Of a stretch of DNA of 64,000 bases, positions 713 through 64,000 are shown piece after piece (position 1 is the stretch's first letter; every line of letters begins with the position of its first letter). The notes under the pieces were generated by a model. The model had not been told where the DNA came from, searched no databases, and worked only from the letters and a program-made list of their open reading frames with translations. Source of the stretch: Enterobacteria phage vB_EcoM_IME341; the sequence record MH051917, one strand, 5' to 3'. The position numbers were made by a program, and so were the translations under genes.

Positions 713-752
713 TATGCTTTAAATTTAGGTGTGTTATAATGGGTCTAGGTCC
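711..752 (+). promoter_or_regulatory. middle-type promoter cassette (MotA-box-like TGCTTTA, 13 bp, extended -10 TGtTATAAT, conserved GGGTCTAGGTCC downstream)
   Basis: TGCTTTA 715-721; TATAAT 735-740; cassette recurs at 11902 and 63541. Confidence 0.55.
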
Positions 753-3517: not shown

Positions 3518-4798
3518 TTATGCCTCGTAAATAATTGGAGGAAGTTTAACACCAAGCAGATAAGACATATTACTCTGCCCTGCCATTAAATCCATATTAG
3601 TTGCGTCTATAACACGAGCTTCTTTATCATCTTTAGCAACGGTATACGGGTTTGCTGAAAGTGCATAACGAACCATCAGAGAAATAGCCGGTTGCAAACT
3701 ATCAGGGTCTACAATAACTTTATAGGCACCAACATGTTCTTGGTCGTCTAAATCCAGACCTTCGGTATACGGAGCATAGAAAATAGAACCAACTACTTCA
3801 TTACCGCCGTAATCTTCTTTAACGCCTACGATAACATAATCTAAAGGACTATTAACATCACAGAATACAGGCAATCCATTAATCAAATAACCGTAAGCAG
3901 TTTCTGGGAGCCAAGCTTCATCTTCTGGTTTATGTTTCAACCAACCTGAACCTGCAAGCATTGCGGCTACACGACTAGATGCGACAACAAACGTACCTGA
4001 ATAAGAAGTGGTTTTCTGAATTTCAGAATTCATCTCACAAACCATTTCATATAATTTACGTGCACTTTCTGGAGCGGAATTATAGGACAAATCAATAATA
4101 CCGTTATCAGATACACCAGTTACTTTGTAACGTTTAGATACGGTAATCAAGGATTGTAATACGTCTTTATTGATTTCATCAGCCATTACAGTGGCTAAAA
4201 GGTCTTCTAAGAACGCAGGGGCGTCGAAGCCATTAGATTCCATGTCTTGGGCTAGTTCTACAGTCAAAGCGGTTTTAAGCTTACGGGACTTAACAGGGGC
4301 GTTCCATTTATTAACCTGGAATACTGCATTGCTAATTTCAACATCACCTGCTTCGAATTTTTCTGTGTGGGCCGCATCAGGAACAAGACGACAAGTTAAT
4401 GACACCAAACCTTCTTGAAGGGCATCAGCCAATTCTGTAGCGCTAGTGGATGCGAGTGGGCTTGCTTGAAGAGCCTTATAAACCACATTCTGATACTTGA
4501 AATATTCACCCTCGGCAATCGCCTGGGCCTTATCTGTGAGTTCCGGGATAGTTTCACGGTCTTTAGAACCAACTTCACCGCCATAAACGGCACCAGTTTG
4601 GAAGCTGAATTCATTATCAGGGGTAAGATATTTGACACCATACAATGCAGCAATAGGCTGGCTAGTACGTTGTTCAGCAATAATATCACGGTAAATCAAT
4701 TTGGTTGTAGCACGGGTCAAAGCAACAAGATTAGGGCGACCCAATGAGTTGCTAGAAGTAGTTGTTGACTCGCGCAGTAATTCGTTAATCTTTGCCAT
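3518..4798 (-). CDS. 24: capsid vertex protein gp24
   Basis: 426 aa; N-terminus MAKINELLRESTTTSSNS; position next to gp23 as in T4. Confidence 0.9.
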   Translation of the reverse strand: MAKINELLRESTTTSSNSLGRPNLVALTRATTKLIYRDIIAEQRTSQPIAALYGVKYLTPDNEFSFQTGAVYGGEVGSKDRETIPELTDKAQAIAEGEYFKYQNVVYKALQASPLASTSATELADALQEGLVSLTCRLVPDAAHTEKFEAGDVEISNAVFQVNKWNAPVKSRKLKTALTVELAQDMESNGFDAPAFLEDLLATVMADEINKDVLQSLITVSKRYKVTGVSDNGIIDLSYNSAPESARKLYEMVCEMNSEIQKTTSYSGTFVVASSRVAAMLAGSGWLKHKPEDEAWLPETAYGYLINGLPVFCDVNSPLDYVIVGVKEDYGGNEVVGSIFYAPYTEGLDLDDQEHVGAYKVIVDPDSLQPAISLMVRYALSANPYTVAKDDKEARVIDATNMDLMAGQSNMSYLLGVKLPPIIYEA

Positions 4799-11290: not shown

Positions 11291-11782
11291 TCATTCCCAC
11301 CAATCGATAGCGAACGTACTTTCAAACGTTTCAACTTCGTTGTTCGAATCCCAATCCATCTGGACTTCACCAACGTTAGTAGGCCATAAGCCGTAAATTG
11401 TAACTTCTTTGGTCACAGTCTTGCCGTCACGATGGAACTGGCGAACTACTGCTTGTTTCTTATATTCTGCAGGTGCTGCACCCGTAATTTCATTGGTCAT
11501 ACCATGACAGAGATTCTGCCAATCAACAATTGCTTGACGAGTGTCATGTGCATCATCGTTATAAATGGTAATAGTCCAATCATCAAACGTACGGTCACCA
11601 GCTACGTTAATTTTACGGTTCATGTAGCCAACCGGTACTTTTTCTACAATGCCTGCCGGCATAGGTGCCGCTTTACATTTAAAGCTAAAGTTTTTACCAA
11701 GAAATGGAATTTCCACTTCGAAAAGGTTAGGGCGTGCAAAGTCACCTGACTCAAACGCACGAGTGATATCTGTCAACTCCAT
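11291..11782 (-). CDS. 19: tail tube protein gp19
   Basis: start moved to internal Met (MELTDITRAFESGDFARPNLFEVEI) giving 163 aa as in T4. Confidence 0.85.
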   Translation of the reverse strand: MELTDITRAFESGDFARPNLFEVEIPFLGKNFSFKCKAAPMPAGIVEKVPVGYMNRKINVAGDRTFDDWTITIYNDDAHDTRQAIVDWQNLCHGMTNEITGAAPAEYKKQAVVRQFHRDGKTVTKEVTIYGLWPTNVGEVQMDWDSNNEVETFESTFAIDWWE

Positions 11783-11800
11783 GGGATGCCTCTTAAGTCG

Positions 11801-11823
11801 GTTCCTGGACACACCAGGAACGT
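11801..11823 (-). promoter_or_regulatory. 5' leader stem-loop of gp19
   Basis: GTTCCTGG-ACACA-CCAGGAAC perfect 8-bp hairpin between late promoter and gp19 RBS. Confidence 0.5.
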
Positions 11824-11834
11824 TCTGATTAATT

Positions 11835-11842
11835 TATTTATA
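11835..11842 (-). promoter_or_regulatory. late promoter TATAAATA for gp19
   Basis: TATTTATA on plus strand in the 18-19 intergenic region. Confidence 0.55.
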
Positions 11843-11901
11843 ACAGTTGATAAATCATATTCTGAGAGAATAATCAATCCCAGGCGCAATTCTACGTGAT
11901 G

Positions 11902-11941
11902 TACGCTGTAACCAAACTCATGGTATAATGGTTTTAGGTTC
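11902..11941 (+). promoter_or_regulatory. middle-type promoter cassette, antisense to gp18
   Basis: CGCTGTA 11904-11910, 13 bp, TGGTATAAT, then GGTTTTAGGTTC; same cassette as 711 and 63541 but pointing into the 3' end of gp18. Confidence 0.4.
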
Positions 11942-11967
11942 TTTATATTACAACCTGGGATAATAGA

Positions 11968-13950
11968 TTATACTAACGGTCCAATCAATTCATCAAAATC
12001 AGCACCAGTGCTCGTTGCAACGAAGTTCAACGTGATGTAGTTAATAGAACGAGAAGGTTTAACGTAGATATTAGCAATAAACTCATTACGGTCGATAACC
12101 GCAGGGGTGTTCACTGTAGTATCACAAACCACACGTCCTTCATAAATCCCACCAAGTGCCTTAATACCATCTAAGTACTGAGAAACTTCCATACGGAAGC
12201 TTGAACGAGTGAAGTTGTCGTTCAATTCAAACAGTTTATATTTAGAGGCATCGCCGATATTTTTCTTAAGCATGTTGAACAGACGGCGAACGTTAATGTG
12301 GTCCATCGGAGATGGAACTTTAGTTGCAGTCTTATCACCAAACAATACGAAGCCATCACCGCCGGCAAAACCGACAACTGGGTTAATAGCTTCTTGGTAC
12401 ATGCGGTCACGTTGTGCTTGACGTGGTTCAATTGCCAATTTCAGAACGTTAAGAATCTGACCACGGTTATAACCAGCTGGAGACATCCAAGGCTGAGAAA
12501 CATCATCTGTACGCGCACACAAACCGGCCATATCGGCGGCCAGAGGCACCCAACGGTTTACGTCATTATATTTGTCATACTGATATTTATAGTTACCGTC
12601 AATAGCAGCATAAGTGGTGCTAATGTTCATATTGTTGCTTTCAAACAATCCTGAACCAGTACGCCAGTCGATAAGGTTATCTACTGCACGAGTCAGTGGA
12701 ACGTTAACCAAAAGACCTTTAGGAGGAGAAATAAATGCTAAGCAATCCTGACGTTCATCAGCAATACTAACAACGTGTTTCTGGACGGTAGAAGCAACTT
12801 CATCACCTTCACCAGCAACAGCACCAGCAATCAAAAGGTTAATATGGAGGGCTTCACGATCGGCAAACAAATCCCAACCCTGCATCAAATCGCCTGCGGT
12901 AACTTTATCGTTGGCAGAAACACCACCCATCAAATTAATGATACCACTGAAGCCTTTTGGCCAGTTCAGAGAAGTTGCATAGATGTAATTGGAAGTACCT
13001 TTAGCGAAATAGTCATCAAGATAAATGTTATTACCGTAAACGTCTTTTTCGCCTTCTTTGGTAGAAAGTACGACAGATTCTACGATAGCGCCATCACGAC
13101 GAACAATAATAGCGTATTGGTCTTCTGTTTGAGGACCGTAATTAAATACCGCCTTGGCAATAGAAGCACGAGAACCACCGCCTGGATAAATATCCAGCAT
13201 TTTAGTAGAACCGGCATCATAAGCTGCTTTAGAAACAATTTCTACTTCTAAGGTAGAACCAATTTCGCCTGGATAAAGAGCAACTACGCCTGGCATAGCA
13301 AATTTCTTAAGAGACGCTTGGAATTCAAGAGAAGTAATAGCTTCTTCACTATTCTCGGCTTCGGTCAAAAGAATACCGGAATCGGTAACAATTTTGCCTA
13401 CGGTAATAGTACCAGAAACACCAGAAGAAGCGGAAGTAACTTCAGCCGTCCAAGCCGGACCCAGGGTAGGATACTGGTTTAAAGAACGTGCATAAGTAAT
13501 AATTTTTGCCGATGGGATAAACACAGAAAGAATTTTACCGTCTGTATCTACAGAAGTAACACGGCCTTCAGATTCGATTACAGTTTGGTTATATTTAATA
13601 TTGATTTTATCGCCTACTGCATAGTTAGAACCGGCCGTAGTAATAGTGGTTTCGATATTACCGGCAATAGGAGATGCGTTTTTAGCAAACTCACGACTAA
13701 CAACACGAACTGTACGAAGGTCGTTACCATACTGGAGGAAGTTCATACCAGACATAAAATAATCTGCTACTTCGTTATTAGGACCTCCAAACAAATCCAC
13801 CAGTTCAACTTCGTTAGTAATTTGAGTTACCTGGAAAGCAGGGCCCCACTGGAATTTACCAACCAGCGCTGCACGACCCGTTGCGTTACGAACGACAGTA
13901 CTCTGTACGGACGTTTCTTTGAGCTCAATGCCCGGTGATAATAAAGCCAT
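11968..13950 (-). CDS. 18: tail sheath protein gp18
   Basis: 660 aa; synteny. Confidence 0.9.
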   Translation of the reverse strand: MALLSPGIELKETSVQSTVVRNATGRAALVGKFQWGPAFQVTQITNEVELVDLFGGPNNEVADYFMSGMNFLQYGNDLRTVRVVSREFAKNASPIAGNIETTITTAGSNYAVGDKINIKYNQTVIESEGRVTSVDTDGKILSVFIPSAKIITYARSLNQYPTLGPAWTAEVTSASSGVSGTITVGKIVTDSGILLTEAENSEEAITSLEFQASLKKFAMPGVVALYPGEIGSTLEVEIVSKAAYDAGSTKMLDIYPGGGSRASIAKAVFNYGPQTEDQYAIIVRRDGAIVESVVLSTKEGEKDVYGNNIYLDDYFAKGTSNYIYATSLNWPKGFSGIINLMGGVSANDKVTAGDLMQGWDLFADREALHINLLIAGAVAGEGDEVASTVQKHVVSIADERQDCLAFISPPKGLLVNVPLTRAVDNLIDWRTGSGLFESNNMNISTTYAAIDGNYKYQYDKYNDVNRWVPLAADMAGLCARTDDVSQPWMSPAGYNRGQILNVLKLAIEPRQAQRDRMYQEAINPVVGFAGGDGFVLFGDKTATKVPSPMDHINVRRLFNMLKKNIGDASKYKLFELNDNFTRSSFRMEVSQYLDGIKALGGIYEGRVVCDTTVNTPAVIDRNEFIANIYVKPSRSINYITLNFVATSTGADFDELIGPLV

Positions 13951-18958: not shown

Positions 18959-21358
18959 TTATGGTGCTGAGTTTAAAGTCACAAAATCTGACAATAGAAC
19001 CCATGCATTATCAACCAGAACATACGGAAGTCCATCAGCTGCAGGAGCAACAGGAGGGCGTTTAGCCAACTCAGTTTCTAGTGCAGTGATTTTACCTTCA
19101 GCCGCAGTTAAACGGGTTCCTAAATCAGCAACTTTATCAGATTCAACTTTAACCGCCGCTAAACCTGTTTCAAGAGTACCAACTTTACCTTCTACCGTAC
19201 CTAAACGGGTATTGATTCCTGCAACTTTATCGGATTCAACTTTAACTGCTGCCAACCCGGTTTCAAGAGTACTAACTTCACCTTCAACAACGCCTAAACG
19301 GGTATTGATTCCAGCCACTTTACCAGATTCAACTTCAACAACACCTAAACGGGTATCGATCCCTGCAACTTTATCGGATTCAACTTTAACATCGTCCAAA
19401 CCGGTTTCTAAGGTGGTAATTTTACCTTCAGCTGTACCTAAACGGGTATTAATTCCTGCAACTTTATCAGATTCAACTTTAACAGCAGCTAAACCTGTTT
19501 CTAAGGTGACAATTTTACCTTCAGCAGTAGTGACTCTGGTGGTTAAAGGAGCTATTTTAGCGGTGTCCAATTTAATATCGGTAATTTCACCTTCATTAGC
19601 AGCTACTCGTCCGGTTAAAGTAACGATATCGCCTTTGTTCTTAGTTATATCAGCTTTAATAGGAGTTAATTGTGATTCTATAGAACTCACATCTAAGGCC
19701 AAAGCAGTAACATCAGAATCAGTGGTATCGGTTTTAGATTCAAGTGCCGTTATTTTTCCGTTAACGGTAACATCACTTTCTTCTAAAGCTGTGATACGAC
19801 TATCTTGCTCGGTGTCTTTAGATTTTAACAAAACGATATCGGCTTTAATTTCTCCTACTGAAGTGTTTAAAGCTCCGGTACGTGTATCAAGAGAAGAAAT
19901 TGAAGTGTCATTGGAATCGACTCTTGCCGTTAAAGCTGATACTTTACCGTCTGTAACCAATAAAGAAGCTTTGACTGCATCAATTTCTGCGGTGCCGTCA
20001 AGGATTTCCTCCCATGCAGCATCTTTACGTCCGTACAATTTACCGTCAGCAGGAGCTTCACCCAATTTAGTAGGCATTTGGGCTTCAAGGCCTTTAACAG
20101 AGTTTATTAACCCTCGTTCTTCTACAGTACTACCGTTAGGGTTGGTTCCTTCAATCTGGTTGGTAATTTTAAGAATAGAACCCTTAATACCGGTTTGGTT
20201 ATTACCAATCTCTGCCTGCAGGTCCTGAATAGTAGAGGCTGAAGTATTACCTTGAGTTGTAAGGTCATTCAAACGTTTATTAATTGTTCCTGCAGCCGGA
20301 CTTACATCGGCACCAATTTTACGGTCAATATCAGAAACCTGGAAACGAAGCCCTTCAGACGAACTATCACCAACTATATTTTTTAGCTCATTAACATCAG
20401 TACGTAAGCCACCTAATCTACCGTTAATAGAAGTAGGGGTATCCGCAGTACCGATAGTGGTCTCTACCGCAGTAACTCTAGGAACCAAACCATTATTAAC
20501 TGTGTTTTCCAAAGTGGAAGTTTTAGTTTCTAGTGTGGTTACTCTTGTATCAATAGAGCCTTTATCAAAACCTATACTGGTCTTGATGGAATCTATTGAT
20601 TCATTAAAGCTTTCAGCAGCAGTTTCAAGAGCAGAAATCCTGGTATACGCTGGTTGTTTACCTACGGTATCAATATGAGGACCTAGTTCTTCGCGAATTT
20701 CGTTAAGCTTAAGACCAAGTTGCCCTACATCAGAATCTTCGTAATTCTTTTCAAGGGTATCTATACGTTGTGAATGGTCGACAATAGCACTGGTATTATC
20801 CATAATGCGACGTTTCATGCCGGTGGCTTCAGAAGTTTCACCTGGAGGAAGCGGCTGGCTGTTTATGTCCTGGTTTGCATAGTGGCCAATTTCAGATTTG
20901 AGAAGATTTATATTTTCTCTGACGGTGAGATATGGGCCATCTAAAGACGGGTCATAATAACCTACATCTTCTTCTAAAAAATTAAAATTAACGGTTAAGT
21001 CACCTAATTCTTGTTTAGTTTCGGAAGCCTTTTCATCCACAGCCAGTATATCGACACGGTTCTTTTCAATTTGCTGAATAACCGCCGTATCAGTAGAAAT
21101 ATCTAGGGCTTCATTAATCAAATTAACGTTATCCACAAGCTCGTTAATTTTGTCTTTAGAAGCTATACTGTTTTCTTCTAATCTAACTACGTTGGTTTGT
21201 ACTCCTAAAGCAGGGGCGTTCAAATTACCGTCGTGACCGTATTTAGTCGTGGCTCCTTCAATACATTCTCCATTGCGTATCCAACGGATACGCTCTTGGG
21301 ATGCATCAGGTACACCATCGACAAACGGAAGTTCTTTAATACTCAGTTTGTCAATCAT
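18959..21358 (-). CDS. wac: fibritin (whisker/neck fibre), enlarged to about 799 aa with C-terminal repeat array and foldon-like end
   Basis: start moved to MIDKLSIKELPFVDG (T4 wac begins ...LPFVDG); coiled-coil; C-terminal ...DGLPYVLVDNAWVLLSDF. Confidence 0.8.
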   Translation of the reverse strand: MIDKLSIKELPFVDGVPDASQERIRWIRNGECIEGATTKYGHDGNLNAPALGVQTNVVRLEENSIASKDKINELVDNVNLINEALDISTDTAVIQQIEKNRVDILAVDEKASETKQELGDLTVNFNFLEEDVGYYDPSLDGPYLTVRENINLLKSEIGHYANQDINSQPLPPGETSEATGMKRRIMDNTSAIVDHSQRIDTLEKNYEDSDVGQLGLKLNEIREELGPHIDTVGKQPAYTRISALETAAESFNESIDSIKTSIGFDKGSIDTRVTTLETKTSTLENTVNNGLVPRVTAVETTIGTADTPTSINGRLGGLRTDVNELKNIVGDSSSEGLRFQVSDIDRKIGADVSPAAGTINKRLNDLTTQGNTSASTIQDLQAEIGNNQTGIKGSILKITNQIEGTNPNGSTVEERGLINSVKGLEAQMPTKLGEAPADGKLYGRKDAAWEEILDGTAEIDAVKASLLVTDGKVSALTARVDSNDTSISSLDTRTGALNTSVGEIKADIVLLKSKDTEQDSRITALEESDVTVNGKITALESKTDTTDSDVTALALDVSSIESQLTPIKADITKNKGDIVTLTGRVAANEGEITDIKLDTAKIAPLTTRVTTAEGKIVTLETGLAAVKVESDKVAGINTRLGTAEGKITTLETGLDDVKVESDKVAGIDTRLGVVEVESGKVAGINTRLGVVEGEVSTLETGLAAVKVESDKVAGINTRLGTVEGKVGTLETGLAAVKVESDKVADLGTRLTAAEGKITALETELAKRPPVAPAADGLPYVLVDNAWVLLSDFVTLNSAP
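18990..19560 (-). repeat. in-frame tandem repeats of about 93 bp (31 aa, VESDKVAGINTRLGTxEGKxxTLETGLAAVK) inside wac
   Basis: about 5 copies visible in DNA and protein, one truncated. Confidence 0.7.
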
Positions 21359-35599: not shown

Positions 35600-36049
35600 A
35601 TGGCTTACTCAGGGAAATTTAAACCTACAAACTTACAAAAATATAAAGGTGACTGGAAGAAAATCCAATATCGTTCCTCTTGGGAAGCATGGTTTATGCG
35701 TTGGCTTGACAACCATCCTAATGTAGTCCAGTGGAATTCAGAAGAGGTGGTTATCCCATACTTTTGCAATGCTGAAGGAAAGAAAAGACGTTATTTTATG
35801 GACTTCTGGGTTAAATTTGATACAGGTCAACAATTCTTTTTTGAAGTCAAACCTTTTAAAGAAACCCATGCTCCTGCGGTGCCTGTTAAAATGACTACGG
35901 CCGCTAAAAAGAGATATATCAACGAACACTATACTTGGTCTGTTAATACCGATAAGTGGAAAGCAGCTAAAGCTACAGCAGATAAAATGGGTATCACCTT
36001 TAGATTGATTACCGAACATTCACTGAAAAAATTAGGATGGAAAGGATGA
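35600..36049 (+). CDS. 4: head completion protein gp4
   Basis: 149 aa; synteny; PD-(D/E)xK-like YFMDF...FEVK. Confidence 0.75.
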
Positions 36050-36873
36050 GTATATTTTCCTACATCAATGAGGCTACTGAAACCACAAAAGGTTCTAAGC
36101 CTACCCGTTCAGAACAACAATGGATAGCTTTAGGTGTTGAATATGCCAAAGCTAAGGCTAAAGGTGTCTCGGCTAAGAAATTCGCTGAAGATAAAGGCAT
36201 TAAGTATTCTAGCTTTACATCTGCGATGTCTCGATACTCGAGTCGAATTAAAACCGCTGTACAGGTTGAAAAGCTTCAGAAGAAACCTGGCAATAAATTA
36301 ACCAAAGCCGAACGTCAATTAATTTTGGTAAACAGTTTTAGAAAGAGTATTCGTGATAAGATTGCTAACGAAGGCGCTGCTGTAAACAATAAATCCGCTA
36401 AATGGTTTACAGAAACATTAAAGAAAGGAATTCGTGGACACCAGGTATCTAAACCACAACCTGGAAAGCTTTATGCTTATATCTATGACGCTAAACACAA
36501 GGATACCCTACCGTACTGGGACAAATATCCTTTAATCATTTATCTTGGGTTAGGTAAGCATAATTTAATGTATGGTCTGAACTTACACTATATCCCACCT
36601 AAAGCACGCCAACAATTTCTAGAAGAATTGCTGAAGCAATACGCGAGTACGCCTACCATTACCAACTCGACTAAATTAAAAATCGATTGGAGTAAGGTAA
36701 AAGGATTCGCTGGTGCAGACGTTATGATTAAGGCTTATATCCCTGGAAATATTAAAGGACCTTTAGTAGAGATAAAACCATCTGATTGGGCTAATGTGGT
36801 CATGATGCCTCTCCAACAGTTCATGTCTAAAGGCAAGCGTTATTCAGCTCAGAAAGTATGGAAGAACTCATAA
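36037..36873 (+). CDS. 2: DNA end protector protein gp2
   Basis: 278 aa; synteny. Confidence 0.75.
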
Positions 36874-36958
36874 TAATCTATTATCCCAGCCAGTTATTGA
36901 ATGGAACAGACCTAGGACCATTATACACTGTCTGGGACTTAAGCAATATAGGAACCCT

Positions 36959-37549
36959 ATGAACGGTTTATTTAACCAAACTAACACCACCAACTTTATC
37001 TTAGAGGTTAGTGACTCAGGAATGACCCAGTCATTCAAATTGAACGTACAAGATGTAACACTACCTGGTATCCATATTCCGATCTCAGACGTCCCAGGAT
37101 CGACCCAGGGTATACATCGTGCTAAGCTGCCAGGTTCTACAGTAGAATTCGACCCATTGGTCGTGAACTTTCTTGTAGACCGTGAATTGAAATCATGGCT
37201 TGATGTTTATAAGTGGATGTTGTCATTAAACAACTACGTAACCCACGAATCCGAAGCTTGGCATCCTAAAGGCTTACCTGAAGCAATTACGCTCCATATT
37301 CTTGATAATAACAAACAGAAAATCGTAATGAGCATTCATTACTACGGTGGTTGGCCATCCGACCTATCCGAAATCCAGTACTCATATAAAGAGGATTCCG
37401 ACCCTGCGATAATCGCTACAGCAACATTCAACTTCAAATCGTTTGCTGTAGAAATAGATGGTACAATAGTTACAGGTCGTCCACAAATTGATTCGTATGC
37501 CGAACAACGTGTGGCTCGTATGTCTATGCATCCATCTATGAGAAAATAA
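36959..37549 (+). CDS. 3: tail completion and sheath stabiliser gp3
   Basis: synteny; AGGAA RBS. Confidence 0.7.
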   Translation: MNGLFNQTNTTNFILEVSDSGMTQSFKLNVQDVTLPGIHIPISDVPGSTQGIHRAKLPGSTVEFDPLVVNFLVDRELKSWLDVYKWMLSLNNYVTHESEAWHPKGLPEAITLHILDNNKQKIVMSIHYYGGWPSDLSEIQYSYKEDSDPAIIATATFNFKSFAVEIDGTIVTGRPQIDSYAEQRVARMSMHPSMRK

Positions 37550-38310: not shown

Positions 38311-39194
<884 letters not shown>

Positions 39195-53055: not shown

Positions 53056-53348
53056 TGACTGATGAAGAACTTTTTGAGTTCTGTTATTTCTCACGTAAGG
53101 TTCGAAGAGAGGACCTTACCGCGAATTTTGAATATGCTTATTTTTACCCACTAGAATACGTGTTCATGACAGGGCCCTTTAAGGGCTCTCGTTTTAGATG
53201 TCATGCCCCAAGCATCCGATTAATGAAACAGGTTCCTTACTTTACCCTCGAGTTCATCTCAGGGCCTTGTAAGGGTATTATTACTCGCAGTCTCTTAACT
53301 TATGACCAAGAGATTCATATGATTTCTGACTGGAAGAAATATGTCTAA
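53052..53348 (+). CDS. hypothetical protein
   Basis: ATGA-coupled ORF. Confidence 0.45.
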   Translation: MMTDEELFEFCYFSRKVRREDLTANFEYAYFYPLEYVFMTGPFKGSRFRCHAPSIRLMKQVPYFTLEFISGPCKGIITRSLLTYDQEIHMISDWKKYV

Positions 53349-63541: not shown

Positions 63542-63579
63542 ACGCTTTATACCAAGGATGGTATAATGGTTCTAGGTTC
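63541..63579 (+). promoter_or_regulatory. middle-type promoter cassette
   Basis: CGCTTTA 63543-49, 12 bp, TGGTATAAT, then GGTTCTAGGTTC. Confidence 0.55.
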
Positions 63580-63604: not shown

Positions 63605-64000
63605 ATGTCACAGGCAATTAATCAAATTCGTTCTGAAGTTAAAAAAGTTATTAAATTTGGTCGTATTCCACTGAATAAAGAAGTGGTTGAAAAGGTTTTG
63701 GCCATGATGTGGGAAAAGTTTGAAGTTTGTATTTCTGTAGATGAATTCACTAAAATCTTTGACAAGACTAAAGGTTTGTTTACGTTAGAAGACAGAGTCA
63801 TGAAATCTCTTCACAGGGCCGGTATGTTGACTCGTGCTAACGCCAGAATTATTCTTAGAAATTATAACAAAGGCTACGACCTCTATGGTCGTTTAATCCC
63901 GGCGATGTCATTTGATGAAGTTGTTAAAGATCTTCGTACTAACCAACGTCGTTTACTAGCACTGGGTGCTCGTCTGGCTTTAGGTAAAGATAAGCAAATG
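63605..64000 (+). CDS. hypothetical protein, 3' end beyond window
   Basis: ORF after GAGGAAA runs to the window edge. Confidence 0.5.
   Translation, partial: MSQAINQIRSEVKKVIKFGRIPLNKEVVEKVLAMMWEKFEVCISVDEFTKIFDKTKGLFTLEDRVMKSLHRAGMLTRANARIILRNYNKGYDLYGRLIPAMSFDEVVKDLRTNQRRLLALGARLALGKDKQM

Follow-up and report, generated by a model that had tools for sequence, protein, structure and literature searches.

Genomic Setting of the Cassette

This work concerns Enterobacteria phage vB_EcoM_IME341 (sequence record MH051917), of which a stretch of 64,000 nucleotides, hereafter the window, was analysed, and in particular a short promoter-like cassette that lies between the genes of the tail sheath, gp18, and of the tail tube, gp19, and points back into the former. 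The window belongs to a JS98-like T-even phage of the genus Dhakavirus, and the 2 kb around the element are 97% identical to phage AnYang and 94.6% identical to JS98. Its orientation is reversed with respect to the T4 map, and its plus strand corresponds to the early, counter-clockwise direction. Both tail genes are on the minus strand, gp18 at 11968-13950 (stop codon at 11968-11970) and gp19 at 11291-11782 (start codon at 11780-11782), and they are separated by a spacer of 185 bp (11783-11967). The cassette, referred to below as the 11902 copy, occupies positions 11904-11941 of the plus strand from its box to the end of its tail, and the sequence at 11900-11941 is tgtaCGCTGTAaccaaactcaTGgTATAATGGTTTTAGGTTC. 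The gene context agrees with a sequence-only reading made before this analysis, which had placed the element in the gp19-gp18 intergenic region, on the plus strand and aimed at the 3' end of gp18, here the target of the predicted antisense transcript; no open reading frame (ORF) lies behind it.

The rest of the spacer contains two features that relate to gp19. A T4-type late promoter for this gene, TATAAATA, was read from the sequence at 11835-11842 (minus strand); it is divergent from the cassette and invariant in the alignment of the genus. In addition, the gp19 leader contains an 8-bp hairpin (11801-11821, GTTCCTGG-acaca-CCAGGAAC), which is terminator-like on the plus strand. In Salmonella phage ABTNLS3 the 5-nt loop of this hairpin is exactly inverted (tgtgt), with the stem unchanged.

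Promoter Architecture and Predicted Start

The first component of the cassette is a MotA-box-like element, CGCTGTA (11904-11910, plus strand; T4 consensus TGCTTtA), which is centred near -30 and is invariant in the nine Dhakavirus genomes whose alignment provided all the variability counts given below. In its extended form, taCGCTGTA (11902-11910), the core bases match the T4 consensus (a/t)(a/t)TGCTT(t/c)A at five of seven positions, and at the level of sequence the 11902 copy possesses the MotA box of a T4 middle promoter. Variants of the box are found in mapped T4 middle promoters, namely CGCT in PnrdC.7 and GCTG in Pdam, PmobD.3, and PmobC, and MotA is tolerant of deviations in its box (PMC2988021).

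The second component, 13 bp downstream of the box and also invariant in the genus, is a perfect -10 element with a TGg extension (TGGTATAAT, 11921-11929, plus strand). Both the TGgTATAAT sequence and the 13-bp spacer agree with the T4 middle promoters, in which this distance goes from 11 to 13 bp, and a scan for sigma-70 -35/-10 pairs returned no -35 hexamer as a partner for this -10. The description of the element as a middle-promoter-like cassette, with a MotA-like box, a spacing of 12-13 bp, a TGn-extended perfect -10, and no -35, is thereby upheld.

The third component is a conserved tail, GGTTTTAGGTTC (11930-11941, plus strand), predicted to hold the discriminator and the start region. 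Two T4 promoters share this tail, PnrdC.7 and PuvsY, and their starts are mapped at 53325 and 115371, respectively (Hinton 2010, Table 1; PMC2988021). In both of them the mapped +1 is the A of TCTA(A/G)G, and in these two as well as in P34i it falls 7 nt past the -10; on the basis of the position of this A in PnrdC.7 and PuvsY, the mapped T4 promoters predict that the 11902 copy would start at A11936. As for the proposal that the 12 conserved nucleotides form a shared leader, only about six of them would be transcribed, while the first six would lie upstream of +1, as the discriminator and start site with a G-rich run after the -10.

The regulators that such a promoter would need were judged from JS98, since the extent of the window does not reach motA and asiA. 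JS98, which is of the same genus and 94-95% identical in this region, encodes motA at 163273-163905 and asiA at 161238-161513. Overall, the 11902 copy has the architecture of a T4-type middle promoter.

Paralogous Copies in the Window

The pattern TATAATGGNTNTAGGTNC is matched without mismatches at 735, 11924, and 63562 on the plus strand of the window, and with two mismatches at 36925-36908 on the minus strand. These four matches compare with 0.19 expected by chance, and none of 100 dinucleotide shuffles reached four. A near-identical element had already been seen at 711, 11902, and 63541, and all three instances were recovered on the plus strand (715-752, 11904-11941, and 63543-63579), while the fourth copy (36945-36908, minus strand) had been overlooked. 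Moreover, the box that had been given as CGCT[GT]TA at 711 is in fact TGCTTTA. The JS98 genome contains five copies of the promoter motif, versus four in the window.

Two of these paralogues precede plus-strand ORFs, as the sequence-only reading had it. The copy at 715-752 (plus strand, predicted +1 at 747) is upstream of an ORF at 827-1195 and of rnlB, and its JS98 orthologue is also found upstream of rnlB. That at 63543-63579 (plus strand) comes after nrdC.8 and before an ORF starting at 63605; it is the orthologue of the mapped T4 promoter PnrdC.7, with an identity of 46/56, and the closest paralogue of the 11902 copy, with an identity of 43/58.

The fourth copy, TGCTTAA-N13-TATAAT-GGTCCTAGGTCT (36945-36908, minus strand, predicted +1 at 36913), is located in the spacer of gene 2 (36037-36873, plus strand) and gene 3 (36959-37549, plus strand) and is opposite in strand to both; it is, like the 11902 copy, antisense to late genes. 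The two have an identical 16-mer in common, CTGGGATAATAGATTA, at 11955-11970 for the 11902 copy and at 36889-36874 for the 36908 copy, and at both sites this 16-mer touches or runs into the stop codon with which the upstream late gene ends.

Other repeated sequences were encountered in the window. Ten early-promoter cassettes are found on its plus strand (4825, 39190, 39759, 42998, 48476, 54031, 57950, 61210, 61544, and 62945), with the form GTTTACA-N17-TGATACTATAGACCTATCAA and a strongly conserved start region; some of them, e.g., those at 39190 and 48476, have an inverted repeat (AGGTCTATAG/CTATAGACCT) across the spacer and the -10 and resemble the PeSL cassettes discussed at the end of this work. 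Between 38975 and 52097, in the variable region downstream of gene 1, six small ORFs open with the same sequence of about 40 nt (ATGAAAACTTATCAAGAATTTAT..., MKTYQEF...) and constitute a paralogous family. Regarding the structural genes, tandem repeats spaced by 93 nt (19091-19619; five overlapping copies with 64-76% identity to the reference copy) lie inside the region matching wac (fibritin) of JS98, and a direct repeat of 198 nt (2249-2446 and 3536-3733, 73% identity) arises from two tandem paralogues of gp24 (head vertex), annotated as 24a and 24b in JS98.

Conservation within Dhakavirus

The spacer was matched in 49 phage records, all from Dhakavirus or close relatives and with identities of 92-98%, and the cassette is present in all 49 of the matching Dhakavirus records. 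In the alignment, 4 of the 65 sites of the region 11903-11967 are variable (6%), versus 98 of the 363 third-codon positions (27%) in the adjoining parts of gp19 (0.5 kb) and gp18 (0.6 kb) (Fisher p = 1e-4, a rough value for sequences that are related), and the left part of the spacer has 20 variable sites out of 120. None of the 18 sites of the box and the extended -10 varies, both changes in the promoter part falling in the spacer between them, and only 2 of the 38 sites at 11930-11967 do so. Judged from this distribution, the cassette is not a decaying relic.

The cassette also remains intact in genomes that have gained a gene beside it. In UGJNEcP3 and QL01, an ORF of about 206 amino acids, belonging to phrog_5104, is located between the gp18 stop codon and the cassette, and in vB_EcoM_005 and Bp7 a related phrog_5104 ORF is located between the cassette and gp19. 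The gp18-gp19 spacer can be viewed as an insertion hot spot, with phrog_5104 ORFs of about 184-230 amino acids on either side of the cassette, at loci L001 (1491-2111, UGJNEcP3), L015 (QL01), L016 (vB_EcoM_005), L212 (Bp7), L021, and L028. Each inserted ORF has its own promoter-like sequence; those of the relatives have no match in Pfam, and in PHROGs they fall in phrog_5104, of unknown function. In UGJNEcP3 the last three codons of gp18 are synonymously recoded (GPLV*), as expected for a homing-type insertion.

The Predicted Antisense Transcript

Downstream of the 11902 copy no ORF follows, and after 11936 no start codon is accompanied by a ribosome site; for this reason, its RNA would code for nothing and would be antisense to gp18. 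Its conserved 5' part (11936-11970, plus strand) would run into the gp18 stop codon and would include CTGGGATAATAGATTA at 11955-11970. A search of 11500-12500 against Rfam (E<=1) gave no match. The possibility that the cassette serves a small ORF was rejected for the same want of a start with a ribosome site after 11936, and because the 14-codon ORF past the 36908 copy is kept neither in T4 nor in L103.

The architecture, the paralogy, the orthology of sister copies to mapped T4 promoters, the conservation in the genus, and the lack of an ORF are directly established, and from here we infer that the promoter fires and where it starts. The 11902 copy is probably a real promoter that makes a non-coding antisense RNA. 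It is, moreover, the only antisense site combining a MotA box with TATAAT in the 30-kb late block of JS98, an observation that counts for this reading and also for that of a replication origin.

Orphan Antisense Promoters in Other T-Even Phages

The T4 18-19 spacer has no such cassette and contains instead a G+C-rich hairpin and two late promoters. Among 79 gp19 loci collected from IMG/VR, an antisense middle-type cassette in the 18-19 spacer was found only in Dhakavirus, Gaprivervirus, and Marfavirus, and its sequence is ATGCTTTTA-N12-TATAAT-GGTTCTACGG in Gaprivervirus VR20 and TTGCTAAA-N13-TATAAT-GACTTCAGGTCTTTCC in Marfavirus. The spacers that bear a cassette measure 180-204 bp, versus 100-127 bp in most of the query-closest lineages without one. 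The 11902 copy is thus a lineage-specific paralogue placed in a new spacer. A wider census of the motif in IMG/VR was uninformative, as its 93 stretches were mostly single chance matches outside T-even genomes.

T4 itself (AF158101) has two gene-less antisense promoters of the same tail subfamily at other loci, one in the spacer of gene 3 and gene 2 (75968-76005, plus strand) and one in the spacer of srd and modA (11866-11902, plus strand), the latter arranged back-to-back with the early promoter of srd. JS98 has conserved the two of them, at 74902 and 11207, respectively, on the plus strand. The 3-2 copy is kept, with a correctly spaced box, in at least six further lineages of Tevenvirinae, and this conservation of the promoter contrasts with gp3, for which T4 and the window are only about 50% identical. 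The published compilation of mapped T4 middle promoters, with about 60 entries (PMC2988021), lists neither of the two T4 orphans.

The srd-modA, 3-2, and 18-19 sites have the same layout, in which a gene on the opposite strand ends at a stop codon just before the promoter, and the promoter fires back into that gene. The sequence-only reading had overlooked this arrangement at the gene 3-2 spacer, in the window as well as in T4, together with the precedent of P34i at T4 oriG.

Alternative Explanations

The first alternative, and the main rival, is that the 11902 copy is an R-loop origin of the T4 oriF/oriG type, whose transcript stays annealed, is trimmed, and primes the counter-clockwise leading strand, so as to provide the late block with an extra early origin. 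The minimal R-loop origin is a middle-mode promoter within an element of about 100 bp (PMC3016281), and the 11902 copy, as far as its letters tell, supplies such a promoter. T4 oriG has the same layout, with the P34i RNA opposite to gene 34 and non-coding (T4 GenBank note; PMC3016281; PMC2988021), PuvsY, the promoter of oriF, is a member of the same tail subfamily, and the 11902 copy is oriented like both origins. The content of A+T is also raised, being 70% at 11920-11979 versus about 60% locally, and the solitary position of the antisense site in the JS98 late block, mentioned above, speaks for an origin as well. Against these points, the T4 orphans at 11.9 and 76.0 kb coincide with none of the five origins seen on whole-genome arrays (oriA, C, E, F, and G) and lie outside the two fragments that alone are capable of autonomous replication (PMC3016281). 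JS98 retains the orthologues of PuvsY and P34i and has no obvious need for a replacement, the GC-skew profile has no inflection at 11.9 kb, and the predicted RNA has a pyrimidine-rich 5' end, which would be unfavourable to stable hybrids. On this balance, an origin at this site is unlikely.

Helix stability did not help in this respect. For the 11902 copy, the lowest stability over 40 bp, -42.6 kcal/mol, is in the middle of the range, and oriF (-43.0) and oriG (-44.1) are not distinct from 54 other mapped T4 middle promoters; as the known origins are not told apart from other promoters by this measure, the helix-stability profile, aimed at a DNA unwinding element (DUE), was dropped as a test. 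Regarding the two orthologues in JS98, that of P34i is inside gene 34 (152839, minus strand) and that of PuvsY is upstream of uvsY (about 114340-114360, minus strand), and their start regions, TATAATGGTTCCATAAGGTTCC and TATAATGGTCCTATGGTT, are of the same type.

The second alternative puts selection on the other strand. The whole cassette is surrounded by an inverted repeat, ATCCCAGG (11877-11884) and CCTGGGAT (11954-11961), which spans 11877-11961. As the left arm is upstream of the antisense start, the stem cannot be a feature of the antisense RNA; to form, it requires the sense-strand RNA of late transcription or DNA in single-stranded form. The selected feature would then be a late-strand hairpin past the gp18 stop codon, acting as a 3'-end, processing, or stability element that separates the gp18 and gp19 messages, and the likeness to a promoter would be inherited from the duplicated cassette and little used. 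In agreement with this idea, the sense-strand RNA over the 18-19 cassette folds better than shuffles (z = -2.2), the G+C-rich hairpin with late promoters in the T4 spacer is said to do this very job, and the cassettes of Gaprivervirus and Marfavirus are enclosed by perfect repeats of 10 bp and 7-9 bp, respectively, whose sequences differ.

The gene 3-2 copy behaves similarly, with z = -2.1 for its sense RNA versus shuffles. In the 3-2 copies a 10-bp stem encloses the -10 and the start region, with a double change from A-T to G-C in two lineages, and two further lineages have other stems in this position; 72.9% of the cells are paired in these stems versus 65.5% in shuffles, and 15 of 500 shuffles are as high, a modest difference that rests on seven sequences. 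On the other hand, a hairpin gives no account of why its loop should retain an intact MotA box, correctly spaced from a perfect extended -10, nor of the start region in this loop, which recurs in promoters mapped elsewhere. Furthermore, the outer pairs of the stem vary without compensation within Dhakavirus, and the window has a mismatch at 11885/11953. That the hairpin is the selected feature and the promoter a bystander seems improbable; a sense hairpin and an antisense promoter are nonetheless compatible functions, and neither excludes the other.

The third alternative is that the cassette, whether active or silent, is a neutral by-product, either of recombination between promoter cassettes, as in the shuffling of the PeSL/PmSL type, or of the traffic of homing genes, and that its conserved look comes from youth or gene conversion. 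Its appearance is indeed chimeric, with a promoter half nearest to the 63541 copy and a 3' 16-mer identical to that of the 36908 copy. T4 and most genera have no cassette in the 18-19 spacer, this spacer is prone to insertions, and dispersed promoter cassettes, including PmSLs with a Mot box, are known to mediate shuffling (PMC4122927). These facts do not account for a variability so far below that of synonymous sites in the same genomes, with changes that spare the box and the -10, for the presence of the cassette in every Dhakavirus record that matched the spacer, or for the analogous, non-identical cassettes at the same site in two other genera; conversion by paralogues would also have erased the copy-specific differences that are seen (CGCTGTA, GGTTTT). 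Such a neutral origin is therefore very unlikely. The earlier suggestion of a relic of cassette mobility can be retained in its second half, because the 11902 copy is a lineage-specific paralogue in a spacer that lacks it in T4, and it must be abandoned in its first, because the copy is conserved above synonymous sites and survives insertions.

Finally, loading of the gp45 clamp by an antisense R-loop, so as to switch on the neighbouring late promoter, was considered and rejected on polarity, by reasoning from the enhancer work of Geiduschek, as the 3' end of the RNA would have the late non-transcribed strand as its template, opposite to the required nick polarity.

Proposed Role and Significance

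The reading that we prefer is that of an orphan antisense promoter of the T4 middle type, like P34i, that may act in cis through antisense transcription. The element would be a middle-mode promoter, dependent on sigma-70, with a TGn-extended -10, and activated through its MotA box by MotA/AsiA. It would have been copied into the gp18-gp19 spacer in the Dhakavirus lineage from pre-existing paralogues, with a promoter half like the copy of the PnrdC.7 type and a 3' end like that of the gene 3-2 copy, and it would have been kept by selection since then. During the early-to-middle period, it would produce a non-coding RNA from about A11936, antisense into the 3' end of gp18, and this "anti-late" transcription may work against transcripts that cross the sheath/tube junction, or its RNA may hybridise with them, ahead of the late mode. 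The antisense RNA may act jointly with the sense-strand hairpin that encloses the cassette, the contact point being the loop of this hairpin, which would be complementary to the 5' end of the antisense RNA.

Anti-late RNA is an old observation in T4, and it fits a cis-antisense role, as does the recurrence of promoters that fire back into the end of a gene; for these reasons, we put forward such a role, or one of transcriptional interference, tentatively and with somewhat less than even confidence. Additional support for an antisense promoter comes from the analogous cassettes in the 18-19 spacers of VR20 and Marfavirus and from the orphans at gene 3-2 and srd-modA.

Several observations weigh against this reading. 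Two of the seven positions of the MotA box are off consensus in the 11902 copy, the plus strand downstream of 11936 has no terminator that would delimit a short RNA, and the predicted antisense RNA folds no better than shuffles (z = +0.9). The enclosing sense-strand repeat could explain part of the conservation of the cassette. Middle promoters are switched off as late transcription begins, and so the overlap in time with the gp18 mRNA would be limited. The anti-late RNA of T4 is not known to have a regulatory role. The literature that we searched has no transcript data on Dhakavirus phages or on the orphan copies of T4, and the T4 transcription and transcriptomics papers among it do not mention these antisense starts; an earlier prediction may exist in the JS98 genome papers or in the 2003 review of the T4 genome.

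A broader and rather doubtful proposal is that the 18-19 cassette belongs to a class conserved among T-even phages but unrecognised so far, in which strong MotA-type antisense promoters with a common start region, at gene ends, together with sense hairpins at late sites, form a two-strand switch. Its members would be the srd-modA, gene 3-2, and 18-19 sites, the last in three genera, with embedding in a hairpin only at 3-2 and 18-19. Such a switch may act through a dedicated source of anti-late RNA directed at the hairpin loop, or as a set of conditional extra R-loop origins.

T4 is the reference for the timing of gene expression in phages, and its approximately 60 mapped middle promoters serve either genes or the two R-loop origins. 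A conserved promoter without a gene, with sister copies in T4, would mean that antisense initiation in late regions is selected and recurrent, and not an oddity of oriG. The sites in the spacer can be mutated without touching any protein, and they bear on the source and effect of anti-late RNA and on why some middle promoters are origins and others are not. Regarding annotation, the 11902 promoter should not be assigned to any gene. The importance of the site would rise if antisense promoters at gene ends prove to be a functional class.

Comparison with Known Systems

Four known systems can be compared with the 11902 copy. The most similar in sequence is T4 PnrdC.7, with which it has in common ACGCT(T/G)TA..ACCAA..ATGGTATAATGGTT(C/T)TAGGTTCTT, i.e., the CGCT variant of the box, the extended -10, the discriminator, and the start region. 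The two differ in what follows, because PnrdC.7 leads, about 30 nt on, to a gene with a Shine-Dalgarno sequence, whereas what lies ahead of the 11902 copy is not a gene of its own but the end of gp18.

The T4 orphans belong to the same subfamily, have the same layout with no ORF after the promoter, and are likewise conserved across genera, and the 3-2 copy has in addition the 16-mer adjacent to a stop codon. Unlike the 18-19 copy, they are found at other loci, are older, being common to T4 and Dhakavirus, and point clockwise, whereas the 18-19 copy points counter-clockwise.

The PeSL and PmSL are mobile regulatory cassettes of T4-like phages (Arbiol 2010; Comeau 2014, PMC4122927), and they resemble the element described here in being dispersed, near-identical promoter cassettes, among them the Mot-box variety called PmSL, which are associated with stem-loops, lie at the boundaries of indels, and are presumed to spread and shuffle by recombination. 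The dispersed repetition of a promoter motif is found here too, as seen from the copies in the window and in JS98. The layout is different, because a PeSL has its stem-loop on the promoter strand, immediately before the promoter, and leads into an ORF, while the 11902 cassette is enclosed by its repeat and no ORF follows, and the nearest plus-strand hairpin (11801-11821) ends 82 bp upstream of the box. PeSLs are, moreover, mainly found in hyperplastic regions, whereas the 11902 copy lies between two core tail genes; this site in the core structural block has nevertheless gained phrog_5104 ORFs on either side in relatives.

The closest precedent of the 11902 copy is T4 P34i, the promoter of oriG, or ori(34). 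Both are middle promoters amid late structural genes, P34i being dependent on MotA and firing opposite to the late gene 34 to give a non-coding transcript, and their cores are similar, that of P34i being TTGCTTCA-N13-TATAAT-GGTCCCAG..TTCC. The differences are that P34i is inside the coding sequence of gene 34 and not in a spacer, that its tail is only loosely similar, and that origin activity is demonstrated for P34i, whereas the 11902 copy is a candidate origin only.

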